IMG/VR virus record: IMGVR_UViG_3300036790_000419
Span: 64,001-128,000 of that record
Strand: one strand, 5' to 3'
Length of the DNA stretch: 64,000 nucleotides
Source: a virus
Shown here one piece after another: positions 10,707 through 32,465 of the stretch (its first letter is position 1; every line of letters begins with the position of its first letter). The notes beneath the pieces are model-generated. The model did not search any database and was not told where the DNA came from. It saw only the letters and a list, made by a program, of their open reading frames with translations. A program made the translations under genes and the position numbers.

Positions 10707-11000
10707 GTGCCGCTGCCAGGTGAAGGCCAGGTGGCCGAGTTCGACCGCGAGGCGGCCCGCAACGTGGTCCGGTGCGTCGTTCTCGCGGCGGACAGCGAGA
10801 TCCGGCGGGCGCCGGTCCCGTTCAGCAGCGTCCGCAACCCGGACGGCTCGCGGCAGGCTGAGACGCAGAGCGAGCGCGAAACCCGGCTGGTCCGCACGGC
10901 GGTCATGCACCTGCTGGAGCAGGGCCTGGTGGTGCTCCCGCCGGACATCGCGGAGATGCTGGACGACTGGATTCCCCTTGAGCGCGCTGGGACGGACTAG
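10707..11000 (+). CDS. Hypothetical protein
   Basis: SD gggag, abuts neighbours. Confidence 0.6.
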   Translation: MPLPGEGQVAEFDREAARNVVRCVVLAADSEIRRAPVPFSSVRNPDGSRQAETQSERETRLVRTAVMHLLEQGLVVLPPDIAEMLDDWIPLERAGTD

Positions 11001-13963
11001 TGACCGGCCGCAGCCCTGACTCAATCGCCCGGTGGCTGGACGGGAATCTGTTCCGGTTCGACGGCCCGTCCCAGATGCTGGGCACCGAGCCGAACGCCGC
11101 CCGCCGCCCGTGGGACGCGGCGAAGACCCGCTGGCTGCTCGCCGCGTCCTGGGACTACAGCCAGGCGGCCGGCAACATGGCGATCCCCGCCGTCTACGAC
11201 GCCATCCACAAGGCGGGGACGTACAGCCTGGCCGACCGCTGGTACCTGCCTGCCACCCCGCGCGACATGGACCTGCTGGAGCGCGGCCAGGTGCCGGCGT
11301 TCGGCATCGAGAGCCGGCGCCAGGCGCTCGACTTTGACGTGGTGGCCACCAGCATCTCCTACACCGTGCTGTTCATGAACTTCTGCAAGACCCTCTCCAT
11401 GAGCGGTATCCCGCTGCGCTGGGAGGACCGCGCGGGCGACCCGGGGGCTTACCCGATGGTCATGGCCGGCGGCCAGGCCTACTGCGCGCCCGAGTTCATG
11501 GCCCCGGTGGCAGACTGCGTATGGCTGGGTGAGGCCGAGGACGAGCCCGGTAACCCCGGCATGGCCGCGGTCTGCGAGGCCATCGCCCAGATGAAGGCGG
11601 ACGGCCTGTGGCGCGAGGAGCGGGCGCTGTGCTACCGGATGCTGGCCCGCGAGTTCAACTTCCTGTACTTCCCGCGCTTCACCGCCGTGGACTACCGCTA
11701 CGAGGACCGCGGGCTGCCTGAGCTGACCAAGATGGTGTCCGGCTACCGCTCGCTGCTGCCGGGCGTCGGCCCGCGCTTCAAGGCCAGGCGGGTGGTCAGC
11801 CTGAATAACGCGGACCTGATGACGTCCGCGCCGGTGCTGTTCGCCGACCCCGGCATGGGCTCGGGCGACGTCGAGGTAGCGCGCGGCTGCCCGGCCTGGT
11901 GCTCGTTTTGCCGTCTCTCGTGGGCCACCAAGCCCTACCGGCAGGAGGACACGGCTCGCTCGCTGGCTCGCGCGAAGACGTGGCGCGACAACATGGGCAG
12001 TACTGACATTTCCCTGGTCGCCCCTGACCCGCCTATGCACACCCAGATGAAGAAACTGGTCGCCGGGCTGCTGGAGAACGTCACCGGCAAGGTGGACGCG
12101 TCCAGCATGCGGATCGATGACTACCTCAGCGACCCGGACCTCTCCCTGCTGCTGCAGGTCTCGGGCACCACCGCGCTCACCCTCGGCCTGGAGGCCGGCG
12201 CGCAGCGGATACGCGACCTGGCCGGCAAGGGCACCAGCGACGACGACGTGGCGAAGGCGGTCACGGCGGCGATCCGGGCCGGCATCAGGAAGATCAAGAT
12301 CTACTTCATCACCAACTGGCCGGGCGAGGAGCAGGCCGACGTGATGAAGGTGGTGGCCCTGGGCAAGCGCCTGGCTGACATCCGTGACAGCTTTGGCGAG
12401 GCCGCGGCCGGGGTGCAGATCATCTTCTCCTGGACGCCGCTGCTGATCGAGGCGCAGACCCCGCTGCAGTGGTTTGCCGTCACCCCGCCGGACTACATGC
12501 TGCAGCAGGCGCTCGACGAACTCCGCGATCACCGGATCTGGGTCAAGATCGGCAGCAAGGCGTCGCCGCCGAAGCTGGCGTTCTTCCAGGCCTGCCAGCG
12601 AGCGAGCCGCGACGCGGGCGAGGCGATCGTAGACGTTATCGAGAATTACGGGACGGCTTCATGGGGCGGCTTCCCGAAGGACATGCGGGAAAAGCTCGAC
12701 GAGGCGATGAGAGTTCACGGTTTCCGCAACGGGCTCGACGACATATTCGGCGAGCGGTTCTACGAGGACCTGCTCGGCTGGGAGATGATCGACACCGGCG
12801 TGAAGCGCTCCCTCATGTGGCGGGCCTACCGGGACATGGTGGAGCTGCTCGAAGGCACGGACGCCGGGACTTACGACAGTGATATCCCCGAGGGATATCA
12901 CGGCAACGAGTGGGTGCCGCGCTGCGACCAGCAGTGCTCGGGCAGTGCGTGCGGGGTGTGCGACCGCGGCGACCTGGAGCTGCGCCGCGAGTACGTTCAG
13001 GCCGTCGACCGGGACCTGGCTGCCGACCCGGTGCGCCCGCTCGACCAGTCCACCGTCGCGCAGCGCGTCCGGCTGCGGGTGGAGCGCCCGGAGGTGTTCC
13101 GCTTCGTCACCGGCACGTTCCTGGAGTACGCGATCCGCCGGGCCGCCTACCGGGCGCACCGCGACGGGTTCCCCGCGCTCGCCGCCGAGTCGGTGCGCCT
13201 GGTGTCGGCGGGAACCGGCTACCGCGAGCGCAGCGCCGGCGTCGACTATGCCGAGTTCGGCCTGACCGCGCCCGCCGACGGTGACGCGGTCGGCGAGTTC
13301 CTGGCCCGCATGGCAGTGCACGTGCACCCGCACTTGCACTGGAGCGGGAACTACGCGGTGCTCCCGGCGGCGGCGAAGCTGCCCGCGCGCCCGGTCGGCC
13401 TGTGGGAGCTGGAGGTGGCCGACGACCCCGCGGTCCTCGCCCGGCGGCTGCGCTGGTGGGACGAGGCGGAGGCGGTGCCGGTGCTGATCCGCGCGGACAG
13501 CTTCTACGCCGGCACGACCGCCGGGCCCGGCGACGCCAAGGAGCACGTCACTGATTTCTGGGTGACCCGCGACGGGCAGCGGACCGTGCTGCGCATGCTG
13601 CTGAACGGCCGGCTCGGCCCGTACCAGGCGTACGCCGCGCTGTCCGGCAAGGCCAGCTGGCTTGAGGCCGCGCGTTACACCGCCCGCCGACTGGAGTTCT
13701 TCAGCGGCGGCGCTCAGCCGTGCGAAGGGTGCGGGCTGCCCGTGCCGGCCAGCCTGCTCGACGTTCCCTGGAGCGAGCGGTTCTGCCCGCGCTGCGGCGA
13801 CGCAGCCGAAGGGAAGGTTACCGCGGCGCTCTCGGGCGCCGGCGTATTACAGGTACCTGCCTTACGCACACCCTGTGGAGGAACCTGTGGATACTCCCGG
13901 ATACCGGAAGCCCGCTCACCAGTACGGCCAGCCTTACGGCACCTCGCCGGGGGCCGGCGATAG
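11000..13963 (+). CDS. Radical SAM protein (TIGR03960-like) fused to DUF2344-like domain and zinc ribbon
   Basis: CPAWCSFC CxxxCxxC; FGIESRR..DFDVV, AGGQAYCAPE, WLGEAE; QRVRLRVERPEVFRFV..AIRRA; CEGC..CPRC. Confidence 0.82.
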   Translation: MTGRSPDSIARWLDGNLFRFDGPSQMLGTEPNAARRPWDAAKTRWLLAASWDYSQAAGNMAIPAVYDAIHKAGTYSLADRWYLPATPRDMDLLERGQVPAFGIESRRQALDFDVVATSISYTVLFMNFCKTLSMSGIPLRWEDRAGDPGAYPMVMAGGQAYCAPEFMAPVADCVWLGEAEDEPGNPGMAAVCEAIAQMKADGLWREERALCYRMLAREFNFLYFPRFTAVDYRYEDRGLPELTKMVSGYRSLLPGVGPRFKARRVVSLNNADLMTSAPVLFADPGMGSGDVEVARGCPAWCSFCRLSWATKPYRQEDTARSLARAKTWRDNMGSTDISLVAPDPPMHTQMKKLVAGLLENVTGKVDASSMRIDDYLSDPDLSLLLQVSGTTALTLGLEAGAQRIRDLAGKGTSDDDVAKAVTAAIRAGIRKIKIYFITNWPGEEQADVMKVVALGKRLADIRDSFGEAAAGVQIIFSWTPLLIEAQTPLQWFAVTPPDYMLQQALDELRDHRIWVKIGSKASPPKLAFFQACQRASRDAGEAIVDVIENYGTASWGGFPKDMREKLDEAMRVHGFRNGLDDIFGERFYEDLLGWEMIDTGVKRSLMWRAYRDMVELLEGTDAGTYDSDIPEGYHGNEWVPRCDQQCSGSACGVCDRGDLELRREYVQAVDRDLAADPVRPLDQSTVAQRVRLRVERPEVFRFVTGTFLEYAIRRAAYRAHRDGFPALAAESVRLVSAGTGYRERSAGVDYAEFGLTAPADGDAVGEFLARMAVHVHPHLHWSGNYAVLPAAAKLPARPVGLWELEVADDPAVLARRLRWWDEAEAVPVLIRADSFYAGTTAGPGDAKEHVTDFWVTRDGQRTVLRMLLNGRLGPYQAYAALSGKASWLEAARYTARRLEFFSGGAQPCEGCGLPVPASLLDVPWSERFCPRCGDAAEGKVTAALSGAGVLQVPALRTPCGGTCGYSRIPEARSPVRPALRHLAGGRR
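13843..13849 (+). promoter_or_regulatory. CGTAGTA-class element (CGTATTA)
   Basis: Upstream of the 13887 operon. Confidence 0.4.
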
Positions 13964-21255: not shown

Positions 21256-21438
21256 GTGTTCGGCTGGCTGTCCTCGCTGTTCTTCGCCATCGCGTTCATC
21301 CTGTACGCGGCCAAGGCCGGCACCTCGCTGCCCTGGACCCCGGAGGGCTTCACGATCCTCGGCCTGCTGTGCCTGGCCCTGCACGTGGCGTTCTGGTGGT
21401 ACCCGGTCGGCCGCCGCCCCGGGCCGCCGGTCGCGTGA
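21256..21438 (+). CDS. 60-aa two-TM membrane protein (holin candidate)
   Basis: Two hydrophobic segments, basic C-terminus. Confidence 0.65.
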   Translation: MFGWLSSLFFAIAFILYAAKAGTSLPWTPEGFTILGLLCLALHVAFWWYPVGRRPGPPVA

Positions 21439-23402
21439 CCGCCGCCGGCGCGGCTGCCGCGGCCCTGCTCGGGTCGTCCGGCGGCGCGGGCACGTCCGCT
21501 ACCGGGCCCGGCATCTTCGAGGAGGAGCCGGTCCCGCTTGACGTCTTCGTCCGGGACCGGGCCTACCTGGCCAACCCGCCGCTGAGCGAGGTCCAGTACG
21601 AGGCGGTCCGGCACGCTGAGCGGGTCTACTACCTGCCGACCTACGAGCTGCTGGCGGCCAGCGCCGACAAGGAGGTGAGGAACTACTGGTCGCAGCCGAC
21701 GCGCATGGTCAACTTCCTGGAGCTGGAGTGGGGGAAGGGCGGGGGCAAGGACCACACCTGCCGGATGATCGCCATGCGGGTCTGCTACCTGCTGCTGTGC
21801 CTGAAGTCCCCGCAGGATTACTACCAGATGCCCGAGCAGGATTCGATTCACGTCCTGAATGTCGCATCATCTTCGAAGCAGGCCCAGCGCGCGTTCTTCG
21901 CCCCCATGCGCCGCGCGGTGCAGCGGCCGGGCTGCTGGTTCCAGCGCAAGGCCGGCATCGACATCATCGACGCCGCCGCCCGCCAGCAGCGCGGCGCCCG
22001 CGGGGAGCGCACCGTCACGCTGCTGGACACCATCCGGTTCGAGCACAACATCGAGGCTGTCTCCGGCCACTCCGACGCCGACAGCCAGGAGGGGCTCAAC
22101 CTCATCCTCGGCATCGCCGACGAGATCGACGCGTTCCGCTCGGCCGCGGAGCTGGCTCGCAACGCCTCGGCCAAGCAGCGCGAGTCGTCCTCCTCGGCCG
22201 AGGCGATCCTCGACATGATCCGGACCAGTGCCACCACCCGGTTCCCGGAGACCTTCAAGAACGTGCACATCTCCTACCCGCGCTACCTGGGCAGCACCAT
22301 CCAGCAACTGGTCGCCAAGGGCAAGGCTGACAACGAGGCGCGCGGTGAGCGGAGCCGCTACTACGTGTCCGGCCCGCTGGCTACCTGGGAGGCCAATCCC
22401 CGCATCAGCGGGAAAGAGGCGTTCGCGGAGGACTACGAGAAGGACCCGGCGCTGGCCGAGGCGAAGTACGAGTGCAAGCCGCGCCGCGCGATTAACCCGT
22501 ACTTCGCCAACGAGGAGGCCATCCGCGACTGCCTGGTGGAGTACGCCCAGCCGCCGGTGAGCGTGGCCTACGTGCGCGAGGGCGCGACCTGGAGGCCGCT
22601 CTACACCTTCAGCCCCGGGTTCTTCCCGGTCAAGGGTGCCTTGTACGCCATGCACGCTGACCTGGCGGCCACCGGCGACCGGGCCGGCGTGACGATGGCG
22701 CACGTCAAGCGCTGGCAGGACCACGCCCTTGTCGGCTACGACGAGGAAGGCCTGGAGATCAAGGTCCAGGAGCGCCGCCCGGTGGTGAAAGCCGACTTCA
22801 CCATCAGCTACGAGGCGGACGCCGGCGCGAGGCCGCCGATGGAGATCCAGATTCGCTGGGCGAGGATGTTGTGCCTTGAGCTGCGCCGGATGGGATTTCC
22901 GGTAGTTTTCTTCTCATTCGATCAGTGGCAGTCAAAAGACTCCATGCAGATCCTGGAATCGCACGGAATAGAGACTGACCGGTTCTCCACCGACGTGTCC
23001 GAGGAGGGCTGGCGGACGCTGCGGGACGTCATGTACGAGGGCCGCCTGGAGATGCCCGCGCGCGAGCTGACCGTCATCGAGCTGCTCGGGCTGTCGCGGC
23101 TGCCGAACGGCAAGATCGACCACCTGGGTGACAGCTCCAAGGACGAGGCCGACTCCCTGGCCGGCGCGGTTTCCGGCGCGCTGAGGACCGGCGGCCAGGA
23201 GGACGCGAGCGGCAAGCGCGCCTACCCCGGCCAGGCCTCGTTCTACGGCCCGGCCGCTGAGATCCCCTCCCCGGCTGGAATGCCCGCGGCGATGTCAGTG
23301 CTCGGCCCGGATAACTTCATGCCGGCGGACCGCCCCGGCATGGAGTACGGCAGCAGCTACCTGGACGACTGGGGCTCGGCCAGCGGGGACTACCAGCAGT
23401 AA
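21435..23402 (+). CDS. terL: Terminase large subunit
   Basis: WGKGGGKD Walker A, IADEID Walker B, HADLA, SFDQWQS, KIDH...KDEADS. Confidence 0.9.
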   Translation: MTAAGAAAAALLGSSGGAGTSATGPGIFEEEPVPLDVFVRDRAYLANPPLSEVQYEAVRHAERVYYLPTYELLAASADKEVRNYWSQPTRMVNFLELEWGKGGGKDHTCRMIAMRVCYLLLCLKSPQDYYQMPEQDSIHVLNVASSSKQAQRAFFAPMRRAVQRPGCWFQRKAGIDIIDAAARQQRGARGERTVTLLDTIRFEHNIEAVSGHSDADSQEGLNLILGIADEIDAFRSAAELARNASAKQRESSSSAEAILDMIRTSATTRFPETFKNVHISYPRYLGSTIQQLVAKGKADNEARGERSRYYVSGPLATWEANPRISGKEAFAEDYEKDPALAEAKYECKPRRAINPYFANEEAIRDCLVEYAQPPVSVAYVREGATWRPLYTFSPGFFPVKGALYAMHADLAATGDRAGVTMAHVKRWQDHALVGYDEEGLEIKVQERRPVVKADFTISYEADAGARPPMEIQIRWARMLCLELRRMGFPVVFFSFDQWQSKDSMQILESHGIETDRFSTDVSEEGWRTLRDVMYEGRLEMPARELTVIELLGLSRLPNGKIDHLGDSSKDEADSLAGAVSGALRTGGQEDASGKRAYPGQASFYGPAAEIPSPAGMPAAMSVLGPDNFMPADRPGMEYGSSYLDDWGSASGDYQQ

Positions 23403-24357: not shown

Positions 24358-24430
24358 AGGGACGTAGTTCAGCGGCCAGAACGGCAGCTTCCAACACTGC
24401 GCGCCGGGGGTTCGAGTCCTCCCGTCCCTG
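24358..24430 (+). tRNA. tRNA-Trp(CCA)
   Basis: Cloverleaf, loop ttCCAac, C31:A39, G73. Confidence 0.8.
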
Positions 24431-24728
24431 CGACCGTCAGCAACGGCGAGAGCCCGCGCAGGCGCATGTCAATGCAGCTTGAGAACTCCACAGCGTGAGC
24501 ATCAGCGGCGGGCGCCATCCCGTCGCACATGACTGGCAGCCGGGTGCGCTCACACCGTGCCCGGCTGCCGATCAACGCCCGGTTCACGGCATGCCGTGAC
24601 GATGGGCAAGCACCGTGCCGTCCGCCGGCCTCCGGGCTCGCGTTCCACCGTAGGGGTGTGCGGCCTGGCTCCGGCCAGGTGGCGGCGGTACTTGGTGTCA
24701 AGAGTTTTTGCACGATATGCAAAGCAAT

Positions 24729-24801
24729 GGGGCCTTAGCTCAGCTGGTAGAGCATCTGCTCGGCAGACAGAAGGTCGGGGGTTCGATCCCCCCAGGCTCC
24801 A
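24729..24801 (+). tRNA. tRNA-Ala(GGC)
   Basis: G3:U70, loop tcGGCag (C33), C31:A39. Confidence 0.85.
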
Positions 24802-24803
24802 CA

Positions 24804-24874
24804 GCGGCGGGTTGCCGGTTCGAATCCGGTCCGGTCCACGCATGGGCTGGTAGCTCAAATGGACAGAGTGTCGC
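24804..24874 (+). ncRNA. Circularly permuted tRNA-like element (YrlA-like)
   Basis: T arm, then loop-closed acceptor helix, then D arm. Confidence 0.75.
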
Positions 24875-24878
24875 ATCT

Positions 24879-24951
24879 GGGGACGTAGCTCAGCTGGTAG
24901 AGCAGCCGCCTCGCAAGCGGCGTGTCGCGGGTTCGATTCCCGCCTTCTCCA
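24879..24951 (+). tRNA. tRNA-Ala(CGC)
   Basis: G3:U70, loop ctCGCaa. Confidence 0.9.
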
Positions 24952-25107
24952 CTTAGGGCACTACTGCCGCGCGTCGGCCGGCGCAAGGCGAGAGAGGGCA
25001 GCTGACCTCTCTGGTGCCTTACCGTTCACCCGTGCGGTAAAACCGGGGACCAGCGGAGCCGAATGTCCGGGGCACCGGGCTGAGGGTGGGGTAAGCCTCC
25101 GCAACAT

Positions 25108-25185
25108 CGGGGTGTGGCGCAGCTTGGCTAGCGCGCTACGTTCGGGACGTAGAGGTCGTGAGTTCAAATCTCACCACTCCGACCA
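25108..25185 (+). tRNA. tRNA-Pro(CGG)
   Basis: Loop ttCGGga, CCA encoded. Confidence 0.92.
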
Positions 25186-25245
25186 GGATCTCAATGGCTC
25201 AAGTGAGGCGGCAGTAAAGGGCCACGCCCTGCCGGAGATCCGTAA

Positions 25246-25317
25246 CGGGATGTAGTTCAGTGGAAGAGCGCCTGGTTTGGGACCAGGATGTCGCGGGTTC
25301 GAGCCCTGCCATCCCGA
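25246..25317 (+). tRNA. tRNA-Pro(TGG)
   Basis: Loop ttTGGga. Confidence 0.92.
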
Positions 25318-25319
25318 CT

Positions 25320-25390
25320 GCTGGTCAGAGCCGCGTGGCGTGCGGGCCCTTAGCGGGGCACTCAGGGTTCGAGTCCCTGCCTGGTCAGCC
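25320..25390 (+). ncRNA. Degenerate tRNA-like element with shrunken anticodon arm
   Basis: Long terminal helix gctggtcag/ctggtcagc, intact T arm caggg-ttcgagt-ccctg. Confidence 0.5.
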
Positions 25391-25466
25391 GCTCCGGTAA
25401 TAGGGACGCCAGCAGCGGACGCGCGCTGGCGGTCGGTGAAACCCCGTTGCGAATCCGGAGCACCCT

Positions 25467-25539
25467 GGGGCCTTAGCTCAGATGGCAGAGCGCCCGGTTG
25501 AAACCCGGAAGGTCGGAGTCTCGGAATCTCCAGGTCCCG
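25467..25539 (+). tRNA. tRNA-Phe(GAA), aberrant T loop
   Basis: Loop ttGAAac, C27:A43, T loop tctcggaat. Confidence 0.7.
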
Positions 25540-25553
25540 CGCAGTAACACAAT

Positions 25554-25626
25554 GGGGATGTGGCCGAACGGTTACAGGCACTTGCCTTCCAAGCAAGCTA
25601 CGCGGGTTCGACCCCCGTCATCCCCT
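25554..25626 (+). tRNA. tRNA-Gly(TCC)
   Basis: Loop ctTCCaa, U73. Confidence 0.9.
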
Positions 25627-25754
25627 CTGGTACGGGCCGGACTCATACTCCGGTTGCGTGCAAGTAACCGGTCCGCGGCTGTCGGGCTGCGGACCGGGAG
25701 CGCCTGGGCTGCCCGGAGGGGCCGACACCCTCTCCGGGGGCACCAGTACTCAAT

Positions 25755-25826
25755 GCGCCGCGAGCATGTACGGCTATGCAGCGGACTCTTAATCCACGGA
25801 ACGGGGTTCAAGTCCCTGGCGGCGCA
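25755..25826 (+). tRNA. tRNA-Lys(CTT)
   Basis: Loop ctCTTaa, C28:A42. Confidence 0.85.
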
Positions 25827-25870
25827 CTTCACCTGGCTTCGCCGATTTTCGGCAGAGTTCGGTGTTATTC

Positions 25871-25945
25871 GGGCGAGTAGAGCAACCTGGCAGACCCTCC
25901 GCTCCCAAAAAGCGGGATGTGCGGGTTCGAATCCCGCCTCGCCCA
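25871..25945 (+). tRNA. tRNA with CAA anticodon (Leu), short variable loop
   Basis: Loop ccCAAaa (C33), no variable arm. Confidence 0.7.
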
Positions 25946-26049
25946 CGCCGGCTGGCAAGGCCGTCCTGCGAATCCTTGCCCGGCCTCTCCTGTGGGGAGA
26001 GCAAAGGCCGTTACAGGAGGGGGAGAAAAGGCCCCTCCCGTCAATTCAG

Positions 26050-26122
26050 TGGGGTATGGCGCAATTGGCAGCGCAGGTGCGTCTGGTGCACAAGGTTCTA
26101 GGTTCGAGTCCTGGTACCCCAG
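26050..26122 (+). tRNA. tRNA-Gln(CTG)
   Basis: U1-A72, loop gtCTGgt. Confidence 0.88.
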
Positions 26123-26125
26123 CGA

Positions 26126-26198
26126 GCTGGAGAATGCGGGTTCGAATCCTGCCCGGCGAGAGAGATCTCGCCGGTGGCTTAATCGGCAAAGCGCCAGC
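26126..26198 (+). ncRNA. Circularly permuted tRNA-like element (YrlA-like)
   Basis: T arm, acceptor helix closed by GAGA tetraloop, D arm, gctgg/ccagc closing stem. Confidence 0.8.
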
Positions 26199-26234
26199 AA
26201 CCCCGGGCACGGACGGTATCCCGGCCCGGGGCCC

Positions 26235-26308
26235 GCCCTTGTAGCTCATCTGGCAAGAGCGCCCGCCCCGTAAGCGGAAGGTCCCGCGTTCGACTCGCGG
26301 CAAGGGCT
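26235..26308 (+). tRNA. tRNA-Thr(CGT)
   Basis: Loop ccCGTaa (C33), C27:A43. Confidence 0.85.
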
Positions 26309-26419
26309 CGTAGTGTCCCGCCGAAGGCGTCACAGGCCCTCATGCCGGCTCCGTTCCAGGTGCCGTGCGGGGTTCGAGTTCTGCTCGTTTCTCCCTCGAT
26401 CGCGCGTCGCGATCATTAT

Positions 26420-26493
26420 GCCCGGATAGCTCAGACGGCGAGAGCGTATCCCCGGTACGGATGAGGCCCCGAGTTCGATTCTCGGTCCGGGCT
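26420..26493 (+). tRNA. tRNA-Thr(GGT)
   Basis: Loop ccGGTac (C33). Confidence 0.85.
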
Positions 26494-26504
26494 CGCAAGT
26501 TCAC

Positions 26505-26578
26505 GCGGATGTAGCTCAGTTGGTTAGAGCGTGACGTTGCCAACGTCAAGGTCGCCGGTTCGAGTCCGGTTATCCGCT
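26505..26578 (+). tRNA. tRNA-Gly(GCC)
   Basis: Loop ttGCCaa. Confidence 0.93.
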
Positions 26579-26579
26579 C

Positions 26580-26662
26580 GGGTGAGTGGCGTAATGGCAG
26601 CCGCGCACGGTTCAGGCCCGTGTGTCCGCAAGGACGTGAGGGTTCAAGTCCCTCCTCGCCTA
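26580..26662 (+). tRNA. tRNA-Leu(CAG)
   Basis: Loop ttCAGgc, variable arm. Confidence 0.92.
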
Positions 26663-26772
26663 CTTCGAGGTTGTCCACCGTGGCCGCGGGCCGCTGCGCC
26701 TGCCGTGCGAGAGCACGGGTTCCAGGACGGCGGTTAGTTTCCCTGCTAGCGGGAGCGAACGGTGACCTACAC

Positions 26773-26856
26773 GGACGCGTGGCTCAGTGGCTACAGCAGC
26801 GCCCTGCTAAGGCGTACAGGGGTAACCCTGCGGAGGTTCGAGTCCTCCCGCGTCCG
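26773..26856 (+). tRNA. tRNA-Ser(GCT)
   Basis: Loop ctGCTaa, variable arm. Confidence 0.92.
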
Positions 26857-26941
26857 CTTCTGCGCCGGATACCAGCCGAGTCCGTCAGGTGGTGACGCAG
26901 GCGCAGTGCCCGTGGGGGACGGCAACCCGCGACGGGCGCCC

Positions 26942-27029
26942 GGAAGCGTAAGTCGAGCCGGCCTACCGACAGCGGTCCCGAAAACCGTGAGGGGTAACTC
27001 CCGTGTGGGTTCGAGTCCCACCGCTTCCT
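26942..27029 (+). tRNA. tRNA-Ser(CGA)
   Basis: Loop ccCGAaa (C33), variable arm. Confidence 0.85.
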
Positions 27030-27196
27030 CCGCACATGATTGAGGCGGCACCCACGGGCCGCTTGCGGGTACCGCCTCAATGTGTAATCAGCCAGGCTGG
27101 TGATCCAGTCCAGAAGGAAGGAACCACGTGCCTTTACGAGCAGCCTAGTTTACTGCTCGCGTTCGCAAGCATACGCACAGTCACAGTGATTGTCGA

Positions 27197-27273
27197 GGGC
27201 GGGTAGCTCAGCAGGTTGGAGCACTTCCCTGATAAGGAAGAGGCCGCTGGTTCGATCCCAGCCTCGCCCACCA
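27197..27273 (+). tRNA. tRNA-Ile(GAT)
   Basis: Loop ctGATaa, CCA encoded. Confidence 0.93.
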
Positions 27274-27274
27274 C

Positions 27275-27349
27275 GGCGGTATAGCTCAGCCGGTGAGAGC
27301 GCCCCGCTCATAACGGGAGAGGCCGGGGGTTCGAGCCCCTCTACCGCTA
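27275..27349 (+). tRNA. tRNA-Met/Ile2(CAT)
   Basis: Loop ctCATaa, C27:A43. Confidence 0.85.
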
Positions 27350-27350
27350 C

Positions 27351-27424
27351 GGGCCGCTAGCTCAACTGCGCAGAGCGGCTGACCTTTAATCAGCGGGTTC
27401 GGGGTTCGAGTCCCCGGCGGCCCA
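27351..27424 (+). tRNA. tRNA-Lys(TTT)
   Basis: Loop ccTTTaa (C33). Confidence 0.88.
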
Positions 27425-27432
27425 CTAGCCTG

Positions 27433-27588
27433 GTGCGCGTGAGGAACCTCGCGCTCCGGGCAGCTGAGCGCCTGCACGTCATCTTCGACGCCGTCCCGGT
27501 TTACGAGGACGAGCGGTGGTACAGGTACGGAGACTGGGGCTGCCGGGCGTCCAACTGGGTGCGCCGGCAGCGGAACAAGCGCCGGTAG
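27433..27588 (+). CDS. 51-aa protein inside the tRNA array
   Basis: Coding-like codons; stop overlaps 5' end of tRNA-Arg(TCT). Confidence 0.4.
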   Translation: MRVRNLALRAAERLHVIFDAVPVYEDERWYRYGDWGCRASNWVRRQRNKRR

Positions 27589-27655
27589 CTCAGTCGGACA
27601 GAGCAGGCGGCTTCTAACCGCCAGGCCGCGGGTTCGAGCCCCGCCTGGCGCACCA
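27579..27655 (+). tRNA. tRNA-Arg(TCT)
   Basis: Loop ctTCTaa, CCA encoded. Confidence 0.93.
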
Positions 27656-27658
27656 CAC

Positions 27659-27731
27659 GGTCCTGTCGTCTAGCGGCCCAGGATGCCTGATTCTCGATCA
27701 GGTCGCGCGAGTTCGAATCTCGCCAGGACCA
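27659..27731 (+). tRNA. tRNA-Glu(CTC)
   Basis: Loop ttCTCga. Confidence 0.9.
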
Positions 27732-27825
27732 CGCAGAGCCTGCTACGCGGGAGACGGCCATTGCCAAAGCAGGTACTCTGAGGTCCGCGCCGGGAGCTGG
27801 CTGAAATCCGCTCGGCAGGACGCAA

Positions 27826-27899
27826 GCCCCTCTCGACTAGCGGTCCAGGTCGCCTGCCTTTCAAGCAGGATGACACCGGTTCGAATCCGGTGGGGGGAA
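27826..27899 (+). tRNA. tRNA-Glu(TTC)
   Basis: Loop ctTTCaa, G1:A72 mismatch. Confidence 0.85.
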
Positions 27900-27930
27900 C
27901 GAGGGCCTCCGGGGTAACCTGGGGGCGCGA

Positions 27931-28008
27931 CGCGGAGTAGGGGAGTTCGGTTGTCCCCGCGGCGCTTTCATAACGCCGAGATCGCGGGTCCGAATCCCGC
28001 CTCCGCCA
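27931..28008 (+). tRNA. Initiator-like tRNA-Met(CAT) with 9-nt anticodon loop
   Basis: C1:C72 mismatch, loop ctttCATaa, T loop TCCGAAT. Confidence 0.7.
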
Positions 28009-28099
28009 CGAGGCCCGGCACTGGCGGCCGGCGAAAGCCCCGGGGAATACGTGGCTGGCCCTGCTGGATAAGGGCTAAACAGCCGGGGGCCTCAGTCGA

Positions 28100-28172
28100 T
28101 CCGGCGTAGCTCAATCGGCAGAGCAGCGTCCCGTTAAGGCGAGGGTTCCCAGTTCGAGTCTGGGCGCCGGAG
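28100..28172 (+). tRNA. tRNA-Asn(GTT)
   Basis: Loop ccGTTaa (C33). Confidence 0.87.
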
Positions 28173-28277
28173 CGCGTCAGTCTGGGATACGAGGGGCAGC
28201 AGCCCTGCCGCGGCCCGCGCGGCGGTCGCCGAAGCGGGACGAGTGCCGGGGCTCCCCAGTCAGCCGCCGGCACACAT

Positions 28278-28353
28278 GGTCTTGTAGGGGAGCCTGGCCG
28301 TCCCCGCCGCCCCGTCAAGGCGAAGATCGCGGGTTCGAATCCCGCCAGGACCG
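28278..28353 (+). tRNA. tRNA-Asp(GTC)
   Basis: Loop ccGTCaa (C33), C27:A43. Confidence 0.87.
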
Positions 28354-28377
28354 CTTTCTCACCCGGGGCCGGGGCGT

Positions 28378-28512
28378 TTAGACACCGGAGCGCTTGCGCC
28401 GCTCGCCCAGCTCGGTCCGCCCGAGCCGGTACAGGGCGCGGTAGCCGCCGAGCCTCAGCCCGATCCAGATGCCGGAGCCGAAGGCGATGACCAGGAGGAT
28501 GAAAATGCCCAC
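28378..28512 (-). CDS. 44-aa single-TM membrane protein (not in ORF track)
   Basis: MGIFILLVIAFGSGIWIGLRLGGYRALY...; own promoter. Confidence 0.65.
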   Translation of the reverse strand: MGIFILLVIAFGSGIWIGLRLGGYRALYRLGRTELGERRKRSGV

Positions 28513-28520
28513 GTGATTAA

Positions 28521-28549
28521 ACGGTACCTGGTTCTTTACCAGTGTCTAG
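28521..28549 (-). promoter_or_regulatory. sigA-type promoter with operator
   Basis: TAGACA-16-TACCGT on minus strand; CTAGAC-actg-GTAAAG 28534-28549. Confidence 0.6.
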
Positions 28550-28554
28550 GCACT

Positions 28555-28629
28555 GCCCCTGTAGCTCAACGGGAGAGCGCCGTCTCGACAAGGCGGAGGG
28601 AGGTGGTCCGACACCACCTAGGGGCACCA
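28555..28629 (+). tRNA. tRNA-Val(GAC)
   Basis: Loop tcGACaa (C33), T loop TCCGACA, CCA encoded. Confidence 0.82.
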
Positions 28630-28630
28630 T

Positions 28631-28704
28631 GCACTAGTAGCTCAGCGGACAAGAGCAGCGGCCTACGGAGCCGCGTGGCGGGGGTTCGAGTCCCTCCTAG
28701 TGCA
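28631..28704 (+). tRNA. tRNA-Arg(ACG)
   Basis: Loop ctACGga. Confidence 0.92.
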
Positions 28705-28715
28705 CGCGAGTACAA

Positions 28716-28787
28716 GGGCGCATAGCTCAGCGGAAGAGCGCTCGGTTCACACCCGAGAGGCCGGCGGTTCGATCCCTTCTGCGCCCA
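28716..28787 (+). tRNA. tRNA-Val(CAC)
   Basis: Loop ttCACac. Confidence 0.88.
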
Positions 28788-28788
28788 C

Positions 28789-28863
28789 GGTCGGTATAGC
28801 TCAACGGCAGAGCGCTGGACTGTGGCTCCAGACATACGAGTTCGATTCTCGTTACCAACCCCA
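28789..28863 (+). tRNA. tRNA-His(GTG)
   Basis: G-1/C73, loop ctGTGgc, C3:A70, CCA encoded. Confidence 0.9.
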
Positions 28864-28864
28864 T

Positions 28865-28948
28865 GGCGGAGTGACCCGAGATGGCAAGGGGGCCGGCTGT
28901 AAACCGGCTGCGCGAGCATGGCAGGTTCGAGCCCTGCGTCCGTCACCA
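28865..28948 (+). tRNA. tRNA-Tyr(GTA)
   Basis: Loop ctGTAaa, variable arm, CCA encoded. Confidence 0.9.
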
Positions 28949-28949
28949 A

Positions 28950-29023
28950 GGTCTCATAGCTCAGTGGAACAGAGCACCCGCCTCCGGAGCGGGGGGCCGG
29001 CGGTTCGAGTCCGTCTGAGACCA
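28950..29023 (+). tRNA. tRNA-Arg(CCG)
   Basis: Loop ctCCGga. Confidence 0.92.
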
Positions 29024-29111
29024 CGACTGAGTTCACCGCCGTGACCTGGCAGCGGGTAGCGGTGGGCCAGTAAAGCGGGGCGTGCTGCCGGCTACGCCTG
29101 CCCCGTCCAAT

Positions 29112-29187
29112 GGCGGTATGGCCGAGTGGTACAGGCGCACGCCTGCAAAACGTGCTTACCCGGGTCCGATTCCCGGTGCCGCCTCCA
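29112..29187 (+). tRNA. tRNA-Cys(GCA)
   Basis: Loop ctGCAaa, C31:A39, T loop TCCGATT, U73, CCA encoded. Confidence 0.87.
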
Positions 29188-29188
29188 G

Positions 29189-29261
29189 GACCCTGTAGCT
29201 CAGCGGACAGAGCTGCTTCCCCCTAAGGAGCGAGTCGCTGGTTCGAGTCCAGCCAGGGCCG
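29189..29261 (+). tRNA. tRNA-Arg(CCT)
   Basis: Loop ccCCTaa (C33), A2:C71. Confidence 0.85.
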
Positions 29262-29394
29262 CCTTCGGTGCTCACGCTGTGGCAGCCTGGAGACGGGAGA
29301 CCGGGTACGGGCTCGGCTTCGCGGGTCTGAGATCGTTTCCGGTCTCCCGTCACACCAGGGTACATGCACATCACTGCGTTACGCTGGCCCTATT

Positions 29395-30866: not shown

Positions 30867-32465
30867 ATGACTACACCGGGCGGCGGGCAGGGCTCCTACA
30901 GCTCCAGCGTGCAGCCGCCTGGTGGCCTCGGGGTTAGCAGTCAGGGCTACGGCCAGGAGGGCTACGTCCTGCAGGACGAGCAGACGCTTGTCCAGCCGCC
31001 CGACGAAGCTCTCAATTTTGCCACCGGCGTCCCGTACTTCCTCCCCTTCGCCACCCCGTACCGGGACTCGTGGGAGGTCTTCCGCGACGACCCGGTCAGC
31101 ATCCGCCAGCTGGTCACCATGCGCCGCCGCGACGGCCAGGCCAGGGCGCTGTACCGGCTGCTGACCAAGCCGCTGCTGAGCGCGATGAAGAACGCCGACG
31201 TGGTGCCCGCCGACGGGGTGACCGGCGGGGTGGAGGAGGCCCGGTTCTGCAAGGACCTGCTGTTCGCGCCGCGGGCGCAGGGCGGCATGTCTCAGTCGTT
31301 TGACAAATTCGTCAAGCAGATGCTGCTCGCGCTGTTCAACGGGTTCAGCGCCTGGGAGATGGTCTACTGGGTCCCCAAGACCGGGCCGAACAAGGGCAAG
31401 TGGACGCTGCGCAAGATGGACTGGCGCCCTTCGGAGACCCTCACCTTCCTGCTTGACGGCCAGGGCGAGTTCAACGGCTTCCGGCAGCGCACGTTCTTCC
31501 AGGGCCGGACGATCGACGTCAAGATCGCGAAAGAGACCGCGCTGTACTACGCGCACGAGGAAGCCGAGCGGCCGTTCTACGGCGTGTCCATGTTCGAGAG
31601 CGCCTTCTACCACTACGACAAGAAGGAGAAGCTCTACTACATCGCTCACCTGGCGGCGCAGCGGGCCGCGGTGGGCCTGCGGGTGGGCACGATGGTGCCG
31701 AATGCCCCGGCTGAGGACAAGAACAACTTCATCCGGGCGCTGGCCCAGCTCGGGCTCGCGCAGTACATCGCGCTGCCCACCGCCGACTGGACGGTGCAGA
31801 CCCTCAACGAGTCAGCCAGCCGGTTCGACTTCCTGGGGCTGATCAACCACCACAACAGCCAGATGTCCAAGAGCGTTCTCGCCCAGTGGTTCGACAACGA
31901 GCAGGGAGGCGGCCAGGGGGACAGCACGCTGGTCGACTTCGGCAAGCAGGACGACGTCACCTACTTCCTGATGCTGGAGGGCATCCTGGAGGAGATGGCC
32001 GGGATCATCACCGACCACATCTTCCCGCGCTTCGTCGACTGGAACTTCGGCTCCGGCAAGTACCCGCAGTTCAAGTGGGGCCCGCTGACCGAGGAGGCCA
32101 AGGCCGCCATCCAGGACACGTTCGACAAGCTGGCCACCGCCGGCCAGCAGGCCAACGTCACGCCGGAGTTCATGCTCGACCTGGAGCAGCGGATGGCCGT
32201 CGACTTCGGGTTCGACATCGACTACGACAAGATCAAGGCGGACCGCGAGAAGCAGCAGAAGCAGATGGCCGCCCAGCAGAAGCAGATGGCCGCCCAGGCC
32301 CAGCAGCAGGCGCAGAACCCGGTCCAGGCCGGGAAGGGCGGGTCCCCCCAGCAGCCGGTGGTGCACATCAAGGTCCCGGTCGGCTCCCAGACTTCCGCCA
32401 CCGGCACGTCGGCCTCCGGCGGCAGCGCGGTCGGCCAGCGCAGCGGGAACGGGCTAGACAGGTGA
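30867..32465 (+). CDS. Portal protein (DUF935/Mu gp29-like)
   Basis: ALFNGFSAWE, PFYGVSM..AF, SKSVLAQ, V.WNFG...P; CCGATTA(30853)-N7-ATG. Confidence 0.88.
   Translation: MTTPGGGQGSYSSSVQPPGGLGVSSQGYGQEGYVLQDEQTLVQPPDEALNFATGVPYFLPFATPYRDSWEVFRDDPVSIRQLVTMRRRDGQARALYRLLTKPLLSAMKNADVVPADGVTGGVEEARFCKDLLFAPRAQGGMSQSFDKFVKQMLLALFNGFSAWEMVYWVPKTGPNKGKWTLRKMDWRPSETLTFLLDGQGEFNGFRQRTFFQGRTIDVKIAKETALYYAHEEAERPFYGVSMFESAFYHYDKKEKLYYIAHLAAQRAAVGLRVGTMVPNAPAEDKNNFIRALAQLGLAQYIALPTADWTVQTLNESASRFDFLGLINHHNSQMSKSVLAQWFDNEQGGGQGDSTLVDFGKQDDVTYFLMLEGILEEMAGIITDHIFPRFVDWNFGSGKYPQFKWGPLTEEAKAAIQDTFDKLATAGQQANVTPEFMLDLEQRMAVDFGFDIDYDKIKADREKQQKQMAAQQKQMAAQAQQQAQNPVQAGKGGSPQQPVVHIKVPVGSQTSATGTSASGGSAVGQRSGNGLDR

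Follow-up and report, generated by a model that had tools for sequence, protein, structure and literature searches.

The anticodon loop makes its U-turn at the uridine in position 33, a residue regarded as practically invariant in elongator tRNAs. The locus described here raises the question of why cytosine takes its place (C33) in 10 of the 33 genes of the tRNA array of a large soil phage, and whether that cytosine is still present in the mature tRNAs. The array (positions 24358–29263, + strand) lies in a window of 64,000 nt that corresponds to bases 64001–128000 of the 148,913 bp IMG/VR virus record IMGVR_UViG_3300036790_000419, which is approximately 70 % GC and has a CheckV completeness of 98 %. 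ARAGORN and Rfam (RF00005) concur in finding 33 tRNA genes, all on the + strand and covering all 20 amino acids, and the array is syntenic with those of related IMG/VR loci. An initial annotation of this DNA had offered two explanations, namely a tRNA set that depends on C-to-U editing, and a broad strategy of escape from anticodon nucleases. The first finds no support in the analysis below, while the second is plausible, since C33 was found family-wide, recurrently and in particular isoacceptors, in genes that are otherwise intact. We tentatively favour the view that C33 is encoded, would stay C, would be tolerated on the ribosome, and has been retained because it removes a uridine needed by host enzymes directed at the anticodon loop.

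Position 33 in the array and its relatives

The ARAGORN structures were mapped onto standard tRNA numbering with the ARAGORN register taken as given, under which a few odd tRNAs are misaligned. C33 was present in exactly the ten tRNAs that had been named in the initial annotation, and the genes for these score 44–59 bits against RF00005, except for Ser(CGA), the long arm of which aligns to the tRNA-Sec model. C55, claimed for three tRNAs, was seen in all of them: the initiator-like tRNA that occupies the second Met(CAT) slot by synteny (27931–28009, + strand, C55 at 27990), which has a 9 nt anticodon loop, CTTTCATAA, and C1:C72; Val(GAC) (C55 at 28608); and Cys(GCA) (29112–29187, + strand, C55 at 29166), which has U33 and a C31:A39 mismatch. 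The statement that there is no C at U8 or U54 also holds, the exceptions being the odd ARAGORN alignments of Lys(CTT), with G8, and Phe, with an aberrant T loop.

A survey of related arrays, one of the checks that had been suggested, was made in a phage family of 125–152 kb and 67–70 % GC, collected via the portal protein (57 IMG/VR loci, 45–96 % identity, many of them on contigs of 124–152 kb). Those of the 57 loci that include the upstream flank share one order of tRNA genes (Trp, Ala, Ala, Pro, Pro, Phe, Gly, Lys, Leu, Gln, Thr and so on), and the order is kept across relatives with portal identities of 74–96 %. C33 recurs throughout. The 515 distinct family tRNAs have T at position 33 in 394 cases, C in 120, G in one and A in none, proportions that overstate the independent observations, as the counts include related sequences, so that the number of changes on a tree is the safer figure. 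Three distant members (portal 74–76 % identical) also have arrays, with C33 in 11/31, 10/30 and 3/24 tRNAs.

C33 is biased towards particular isoacceptors (the ten window genes given here are all on the + strand, and fractions are the orthologues with C33). It is near fixation in Ser(CGA) (26942–27031, C33 at 26978; 10/11), which retains an intact long variable arm and is likewise C33 in the distant arrays L091 and L092, and in Thr(GGT) (26420–26494, C33 at 26453; 10/12). About half of the copies carry it in Asn(GTT) (28100–28173, C33 at 28132, G27:A43; 11/21), Asp(GTC) (28278–28354, C33 at 28313, C27:A43; 10/21), Val(GAC) (28555–28629, C33 at 28586, with CCA encoded; 15/27) and Val-CAC. The remaining window genes are Ala(GGC) (24729–24802, C33 at 24761, C31:A39; 5/13), the tRNA labelled Leu(CAA) (25871–25946, C33 at 25905, without a long variable arm; 4/12), Arg(CCT) (29189–29263, C33 at 29221, A2:C71; 10/31), Thr(CGT) (26235–26309, C33 at 26268, C27:A43; 3/10) and Lys(TTT) (27351–27425, C33 at 27384; 3/16). 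At the other extreme, no C33 was found in Arg-ACG (0/26), Gly-GCC (0/19), Ser-GCT (0/19), Ile-GAT (0/15), Lys-CTT (0/12) or Phe (0/12).

Other invariant positions are well kept in the family (T54 96 %, T55 97 %, C56 99.6 % and G53:C61 98 %) and, with position 33 confined to T and C, this indicates a constraint to pyrimidine and not decay. Genes with C33 have a mean of 0.47 stem mismatches compared to 0.50 for those with U33, and 86.5 % of the former against 80.4 % of the latter are canonical at U8, T54, T55, C56, A58 and G53:C61. The share of C among pyrimidines is 0.67 in the spacers of the array, 0.71 at position 32 and only 0.23 at position 33, far below the neutral value; hence, U is still preferred overall. 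Of orthologue pairs, 27 % differ by T/C at position 33, much as at position 32, which varies freely, and on the portal tree, which may differ from the history of the array, at least 81 T/C changes are required compared to 90 when the labels are shuffled. C33 has thus been repeatedly gained and lost, or moved by recombination. C is also found at a low level at further conserved U positions in the family (C55 3 %, C54 1.4 % and C8 2 %) and at none of them in the control genomes and arrays described below. Of 568 distinct family tRNAs, 16 have C55; these are scattered over ten isoacceptors and confined to the window and seven related arrays (L001, L002, L006, L008, L015, L044 and L046), and none of the 141 control tRNAs has it. 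Two further ideas were rejected, that C33 marks rarely used tRNAs (C33 frequency against phage codon use, rho −0.05) and that it goes with U-poor loops (U at other loop positions, 1.08 versus 1.15).

C33 was absent from both cellular genomes used as controls (0/63), with 0/33 in Nocardia farcinica (Actinomycetota, 70 % GC, sampled tRNA loci 66 % GC; the sequence is a PLSDB record mislabelled as a plasmid) and 0/30 in a Burkholderiales metagenome-assembled genome (MAG). High GC alone does not yield C33 in cells. Three other phage arrays have it in 2/78 tRNAs: none of 25 in Microbacterium phage Magritte, the portal of which is 50 % identical, one of 25 in Mycobacterium phage Phabba (Val-GAC) and one of 28 in Caulobacter phage phiCbK (Ile-GAT, loop CCGATAA). 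C33 is rare in these three arrays, and its frequency here is approximately ten times higher (10/33 in the window versus 2/141 over the five control sets, Fisher p=7e-6; family versus phage controls, p=2e-6).

The stems were considered separately. Of 561 stem pairs scored in the window, 19 (3.4 %) are mismatched, 11 of them C:A or A:C. The ten C:A or A:C mismatches listed in the initial annotation are all present, as is the G27:A43 in Asn and Gln. Six further ones (C6:U67, U53:U61, G1:A72, C1:C72, C51:U63 and G7:G66) had gone unlisted and are beyond repair by C-to-U changes, making 8 of the 19 irreparable. The load is the same as in the three other phage arrays (46/1326, 3.5 %; p=1.0), though four times the cellular load (p=4e-4), and general sloppiness is therefore no explanation of the tenfold excess of C33. 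Across the family, C:A (51) and A:C (43) are the commonest types, with U:U (42), G:A (39) and others following, because a single transition separates these two, and no other mismatches, from a Watson–Crick pair; G:U, the other transition product, is not scored as a mismatch. The orthologues mostly have C:G or U:A where the window has C:A, and thus the C:A pairs are intermediates of compensatory change and not conserved features. Their origin would be separate from that of C33, as single-transition steps linking C:G with U:A in the rapidly evolving stems of phage tRNAs.

The position of the C on the 5′ strand in the anticodon-stem cases had been taken as a sign of position-specific editing. Family-wide there are 32 C:A versus 15 A:C in this stem. 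However, positions 27, 28 and 31 are mostly pyrimidines, and at 27:43 C:G plus U:A outnumber G:C plus A:U approximately three to one, so that base composition accounts for the bias; relative to the parent pairs it is A:C that is, if anything, over-represented. The commonest mismatch at 27:43 is G27:A43, which editing could not repair, and the cellular Nocardia Thr-CGT and Thr-TGT genes also have C27:A43. The stem mismatches are ordinary.

Possible causes of C33: escape or mutation pressure

The phage RecA is ~70 % identical to RecA of Actinomycetota, from which we infer an actinobacterial host. In this phage family of Actinomycetota-like hosts, position 33 would have been relaxed from U to pyrimidine, with GC-biased mutation supplying U-to-C variants that arise again and again. 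These would be kept in some isoacceptors (Ser-CGA, Thr-GGT and about half of Asn, Asp, Val-GAC and Val-CAC) and never in others (Arg-ACG, Gly-GCC, Ser-GCT and Ile-GAT). Retention would come at some cost to decoding and would remove the uridine that is read by host enzymes of the anticodon loop or lies next to their cut; the known strategy of anticodon stem-loop substitutions in phage tRNAs would then extend to the U-turn uridine. The C33 residues are encoded and in all likelihood persist as C in the mature tRNAs, which would be functional.

Enzymes that act at this position have been described. PrrC and RloC both cleave 3′ of U33 (PMC2610378), and a Cas13b effector excises U33 from tRNA-Val-GAC (PMC13692257). 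Anticodon-loop substitutions in phage tRNAs were predicted to evade VapC, PrrC, colicins and other tRNases (PMC10264068), and the tRNA-Lys of T5 escapes the AriB nuclease of PARIS via an anticodon-stem base-pair swap (PMC11464382). A bolder proposal, that the U-turn uridine has been changed to C throughout the lineage in a quarter to a third of elongator tRNAs, which decode unedited, as a general counter-defence against enzymes that cut at or read U33, is possible, and we put it forward with reserve.

Several points weigh against retention by escape. C33 is polymorphic with almost no phylogenetic signal (81 changes versus 90 shuffled), which fits near-neutral flipping too, and a selective cost that varies between isoacceptors, without positive selection, could be enough to produce the isoacceptor pattern. 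The gamma-toxin of K. lactis, the one anticodon nuclease with a U33C test in the literature examined, cleaves a U33C stem-loop as well as the wild type (PMC2275089). Mycobacterial VapCs cut the 3′ side of the loop and target Trp, Cys, Leu-CAG and Ser-TGA/CGA (PMC5175351), a set that matches the C33-rich isoacceptors only at Ser.

The main rival to escape is a balance between mutation and selection, in which strong GC-biased pressure turns U33 to C in auxiliary tRNAs, whose less than optimal performance the phage can bear, and the change, neutral or mildly deleterious depending on the isoacceptor, is unselected. We consider it possible, though somewhat less likely than escape. The phage has the required composition (70 % GC, with GC at third codon positions, GC3, of ~0.9), but an actinobacterium of 70 % GC has U33 in 33 of 33 tRNAs. 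The low-level C at the other conserved U positions, which the controls lack, and a C share at position 33 that lies well under neutrality are what such a balance should give; however, the three other phage arrays, whose load of stem mismatches is as high or higher, have C33 in only 2/78 tRNAs. The array is dispensable, as the complete relative G001 (contig of L023; 143.5 kb, rated 100 % complete) has no tRNA genes at all, yet the frequency of C33 in an isoacceptor is not linked to codon use. Finally, while position 33 in general flips with little regard to phylogeny, Ser-CGA and Thr-GGT are near-fixed for C33 across relatives in which the stems have turned over.

Less likely explanations: modification, editing and decay

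An effect of C33 on modification, in which it blocks host enzymes that modify the anticodon loop (by N6-threonylcarbamoyladenosine at position 37, t6A37, and possibly in other ways) and so alters decoding or recognition by host factors, is unlikely. In its favour, Arg-ACG, which depends on the loop-reading enzyme TadA, was never C33 in 29 copies. However, the ten C33 tRNAs of the window divide equally into decoders of ANN codons (Thr-CGT, Thr-GGT, Lys-TTT, Asn and Arg-CCT) and others (Ser-CGA, Val, Asp, Ala and Leu), and Ile-GAT, Ser-GCT and Lys-CTT, which are ANN decoders too, never have C33. E. coli TsaBCDE was unable to form t6A37 on a U33C initiator tRNA in vitro (PMC8887486), though this is a result for one tRNA and the E. 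coli enzyme.

Editing from C to U or to pseudouridine, carried out by an enzyme of the host or by one of the phage that has escaped recognition, would restore U33, U55 and the stem pairs, and we think it improbable. It has precedents in CDAT8, which reportedly edits C8 in Methanopyrus kandleri tRNAs, and TrcP, which is said to convert C32 to pseudouridine in Vibrio tRNA-Tyr; in plant organelles, C:A mismatches in tRNAs are edited. As in those systems, the genes here have C at a conserved U and C:A mismatches that a C-to-U change could repair, and the substitutions at position 33 are all to C, none to a purine, in otherwise intact genes. Unlike in the CDAT8 and TrcP cases, the C is polymorphic between orthologues, toggling at position 33 while the C:A pairs vary, so that a fixed, position-specific edited C is not what is seen; many mismatches are irreparable, and the enzyme would need to act at positions 27, 28, 31, 33, 55, 3 and 71 in different tRNAs. 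If editing were complete, C and U would also be interchangeable at position 33, yet C is under-represented there and several isoacceptors lack it, which speaks against this. A search of sequencing runs with the array listed no RNA data set that contains it.

No such enzyme was found in the phage either. A search of the full genome for a cytidine deaminase, another of the suggested checks, gave no match at E ≤ 1 to the CDA-fold families PF00383 and PF14437 in six frames of the 98 % complete phage, while the same searches give matches in 12–13 of 14 control genomes. A six-frame search for an RluA-type pseudouridine synthase (PF00849), of a kind that gives matches in most control genomes, was likewise without a match, and some 40 of the larger phage proteins, compared to Pfam or PHROGs, include neither type and have replication, recombination, lysis or structural functions only. 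The candidate that the initial annotation had put forward, a radical SAM protein with DUF2344, is encoded in the window (11000–13963) as a 987 aa fusion of Radical_SAM_N2 and Radical_SAM with a C-terminal extension. It is conserved in 9/9 relatives (52–83 % identity), including the complete relative that lacks tRNA genes, and is therefore a core family gene and not a companion of the tRNAs, so that a specific link to them was rejected.

The least probable explanation is that the genes with C33 are pseudo-tRNAs, in decay or silent. Though the array is dispensable in one relative and has damaged-looking members (the initiator-like tRNA with its 9 nt loop, Lys-CTT with a score of 38 bits and Phe with its aberrant T loop), there is no loss of the cloverleaf, no random substitution at invariant positions and no drift to purine at position 33, and the C33 genes, which sit in an array of conserved order, have sound RF00005 scores and are as canonical as the U33 genes.

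The array in its genome and among known systems

Nearly all phage genes are on the + strand. The array lies between a gene resembling the terminase large subunit (21369–23402, + strand; a weak PHROG match, the terminase being directly before the portal in Magritte) and a Mu-type portal gene (30867–32465, + strand; Pfam PF06074, E 4e-33). Besides RecA, genes for replication and recombination include a DnaB-like helicase, a family A DNA polymerase, a sliding clamp and clamp-loader proteins, and the genome also encodes the radical SAM fusion, an E-type major capsid protein and an open reading frame (ORF) of tape-measure size (2841 aa). A six-frame search found no CCA-adding enzyme in the phage, though it gives matches in most control genomes. 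When genome contigs were searched with the portal, a single 16 kb Burkholderiales MAG contig was found (50 % identity), which says nothing on the host, and the only matches of the array to GenBank phages by megablast were of 57–59 nt within single tRNAs.

Several members of the array are unusual. The initiator-like tRNA, in which position 1 is unpaired with 72, was labelled SeC/TCA by ARAGORN because of its 9 nt loop; 16 orthologues have a 7 nt loop with CAT, and the window gene may have been damaged or may encode a tRNA with an expanded loop. The tRNA in the Leu-CAA slot is 74–79 nt and lacks a long variable arm family-wide (window and orthologues in L001–L092), while Leu-CAG and Leu-GAG (84–89 nt) retain it, and its acceptor stem resembles that of Leu-CAG. 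Phe (25467–25540) has a non-canonical T arm with U53:U61 and the loop CTCGGAA, and its orthologues show other departures (G54 or A53:G61), making an unusual T loop a feature of Phe across the family. Lys(CTT) (25755–25827) is the weakest member, and has C28:A42 and, in the ARAGORN alignment, G8 and a 3 bp D stem. Two spacer elements (24799–24880 and 26128–26196) contain T-arm-like GGTTCGAATCC motifs and give sub-threshold matches to Rfam YrlA (Y RNA-like) of 30 and 25.8 bits, respectively, the gathering score being 69. Elsewhere in the family, the radical SAM gene of G001 matches in two pieces ~1 kb apart within one 1295 aa open frame, which suggests an intein-like insertion, and a 930 aa SNF2-family helicase in L087 (4083–6875; genome 44083–46875) includes a LAGLIDADG homing-endonuclease domain at residues 295–372 that is probably an intein.

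A full-text search of a literature collection found no description of C33 in phage tRNAs. Some 130 distinct C33 tRNA genes occur naturally in the family, with over 25 specificities among them and close U33 orthologues for each, and this matched set is suited to studies of C33 in bacterial elongation, of modification enzymes that need U33 and of nuclease evasion at position 33. If escape is the correct explanation, the role of phage tRNAs as counter-defence would widen from the sites of single nucleases to a generic feature of the loop, which would be useful in the design of nuclease-resistant tRNAs for work with phages in laboratory strains. If the unedited tRNAs serve as a general counter-defence, U33 would be a hidden immune target and C33 would be compatible with bacterial elongation.

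The initiator tRNA-Met of multicellular eukaryotes carries C33 (PMC8887486) and provides a functional cytoplasmic tRNA of this kind, in which C33 affects recognition by t6A enzymes. However, that is one P-site tRNA, whereas those described here are bacterial-type elongator tRNAs of many specificities. The same substitution is found in intact phage tRNA genes in Phabba (Val-GAC) and phiCbK (Ile-GAT), but the frequency here is roughly tenfold higher and Ile-GAT is never C33 in this family. A close parallel is with the nuclease-insensitive tRNAs of the C1-cluster mycobacteriophages (van den Berg et al. 2023, PMC10264068) and of T5 (PMC11464382), which are also distinguished from cellular tRNAs by substitutions in the anticodon stem-loop (C33 in 10/33 here and in 23 % of the family, versus 0/63). 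The resemblance to the C1 cluster extends to a large array, an actinobacterial-type phage and fast turnover of the anticodon stem, though the mycobacteriophage control Phabba has C33 in only 1/25 tRNAs and the resistance proposed here is putative. What sets this family apart from both is that the change is at the near-universal U-turn uridine and affects a quarter to a third of the isoacceptors, and not the site of one nuclease.

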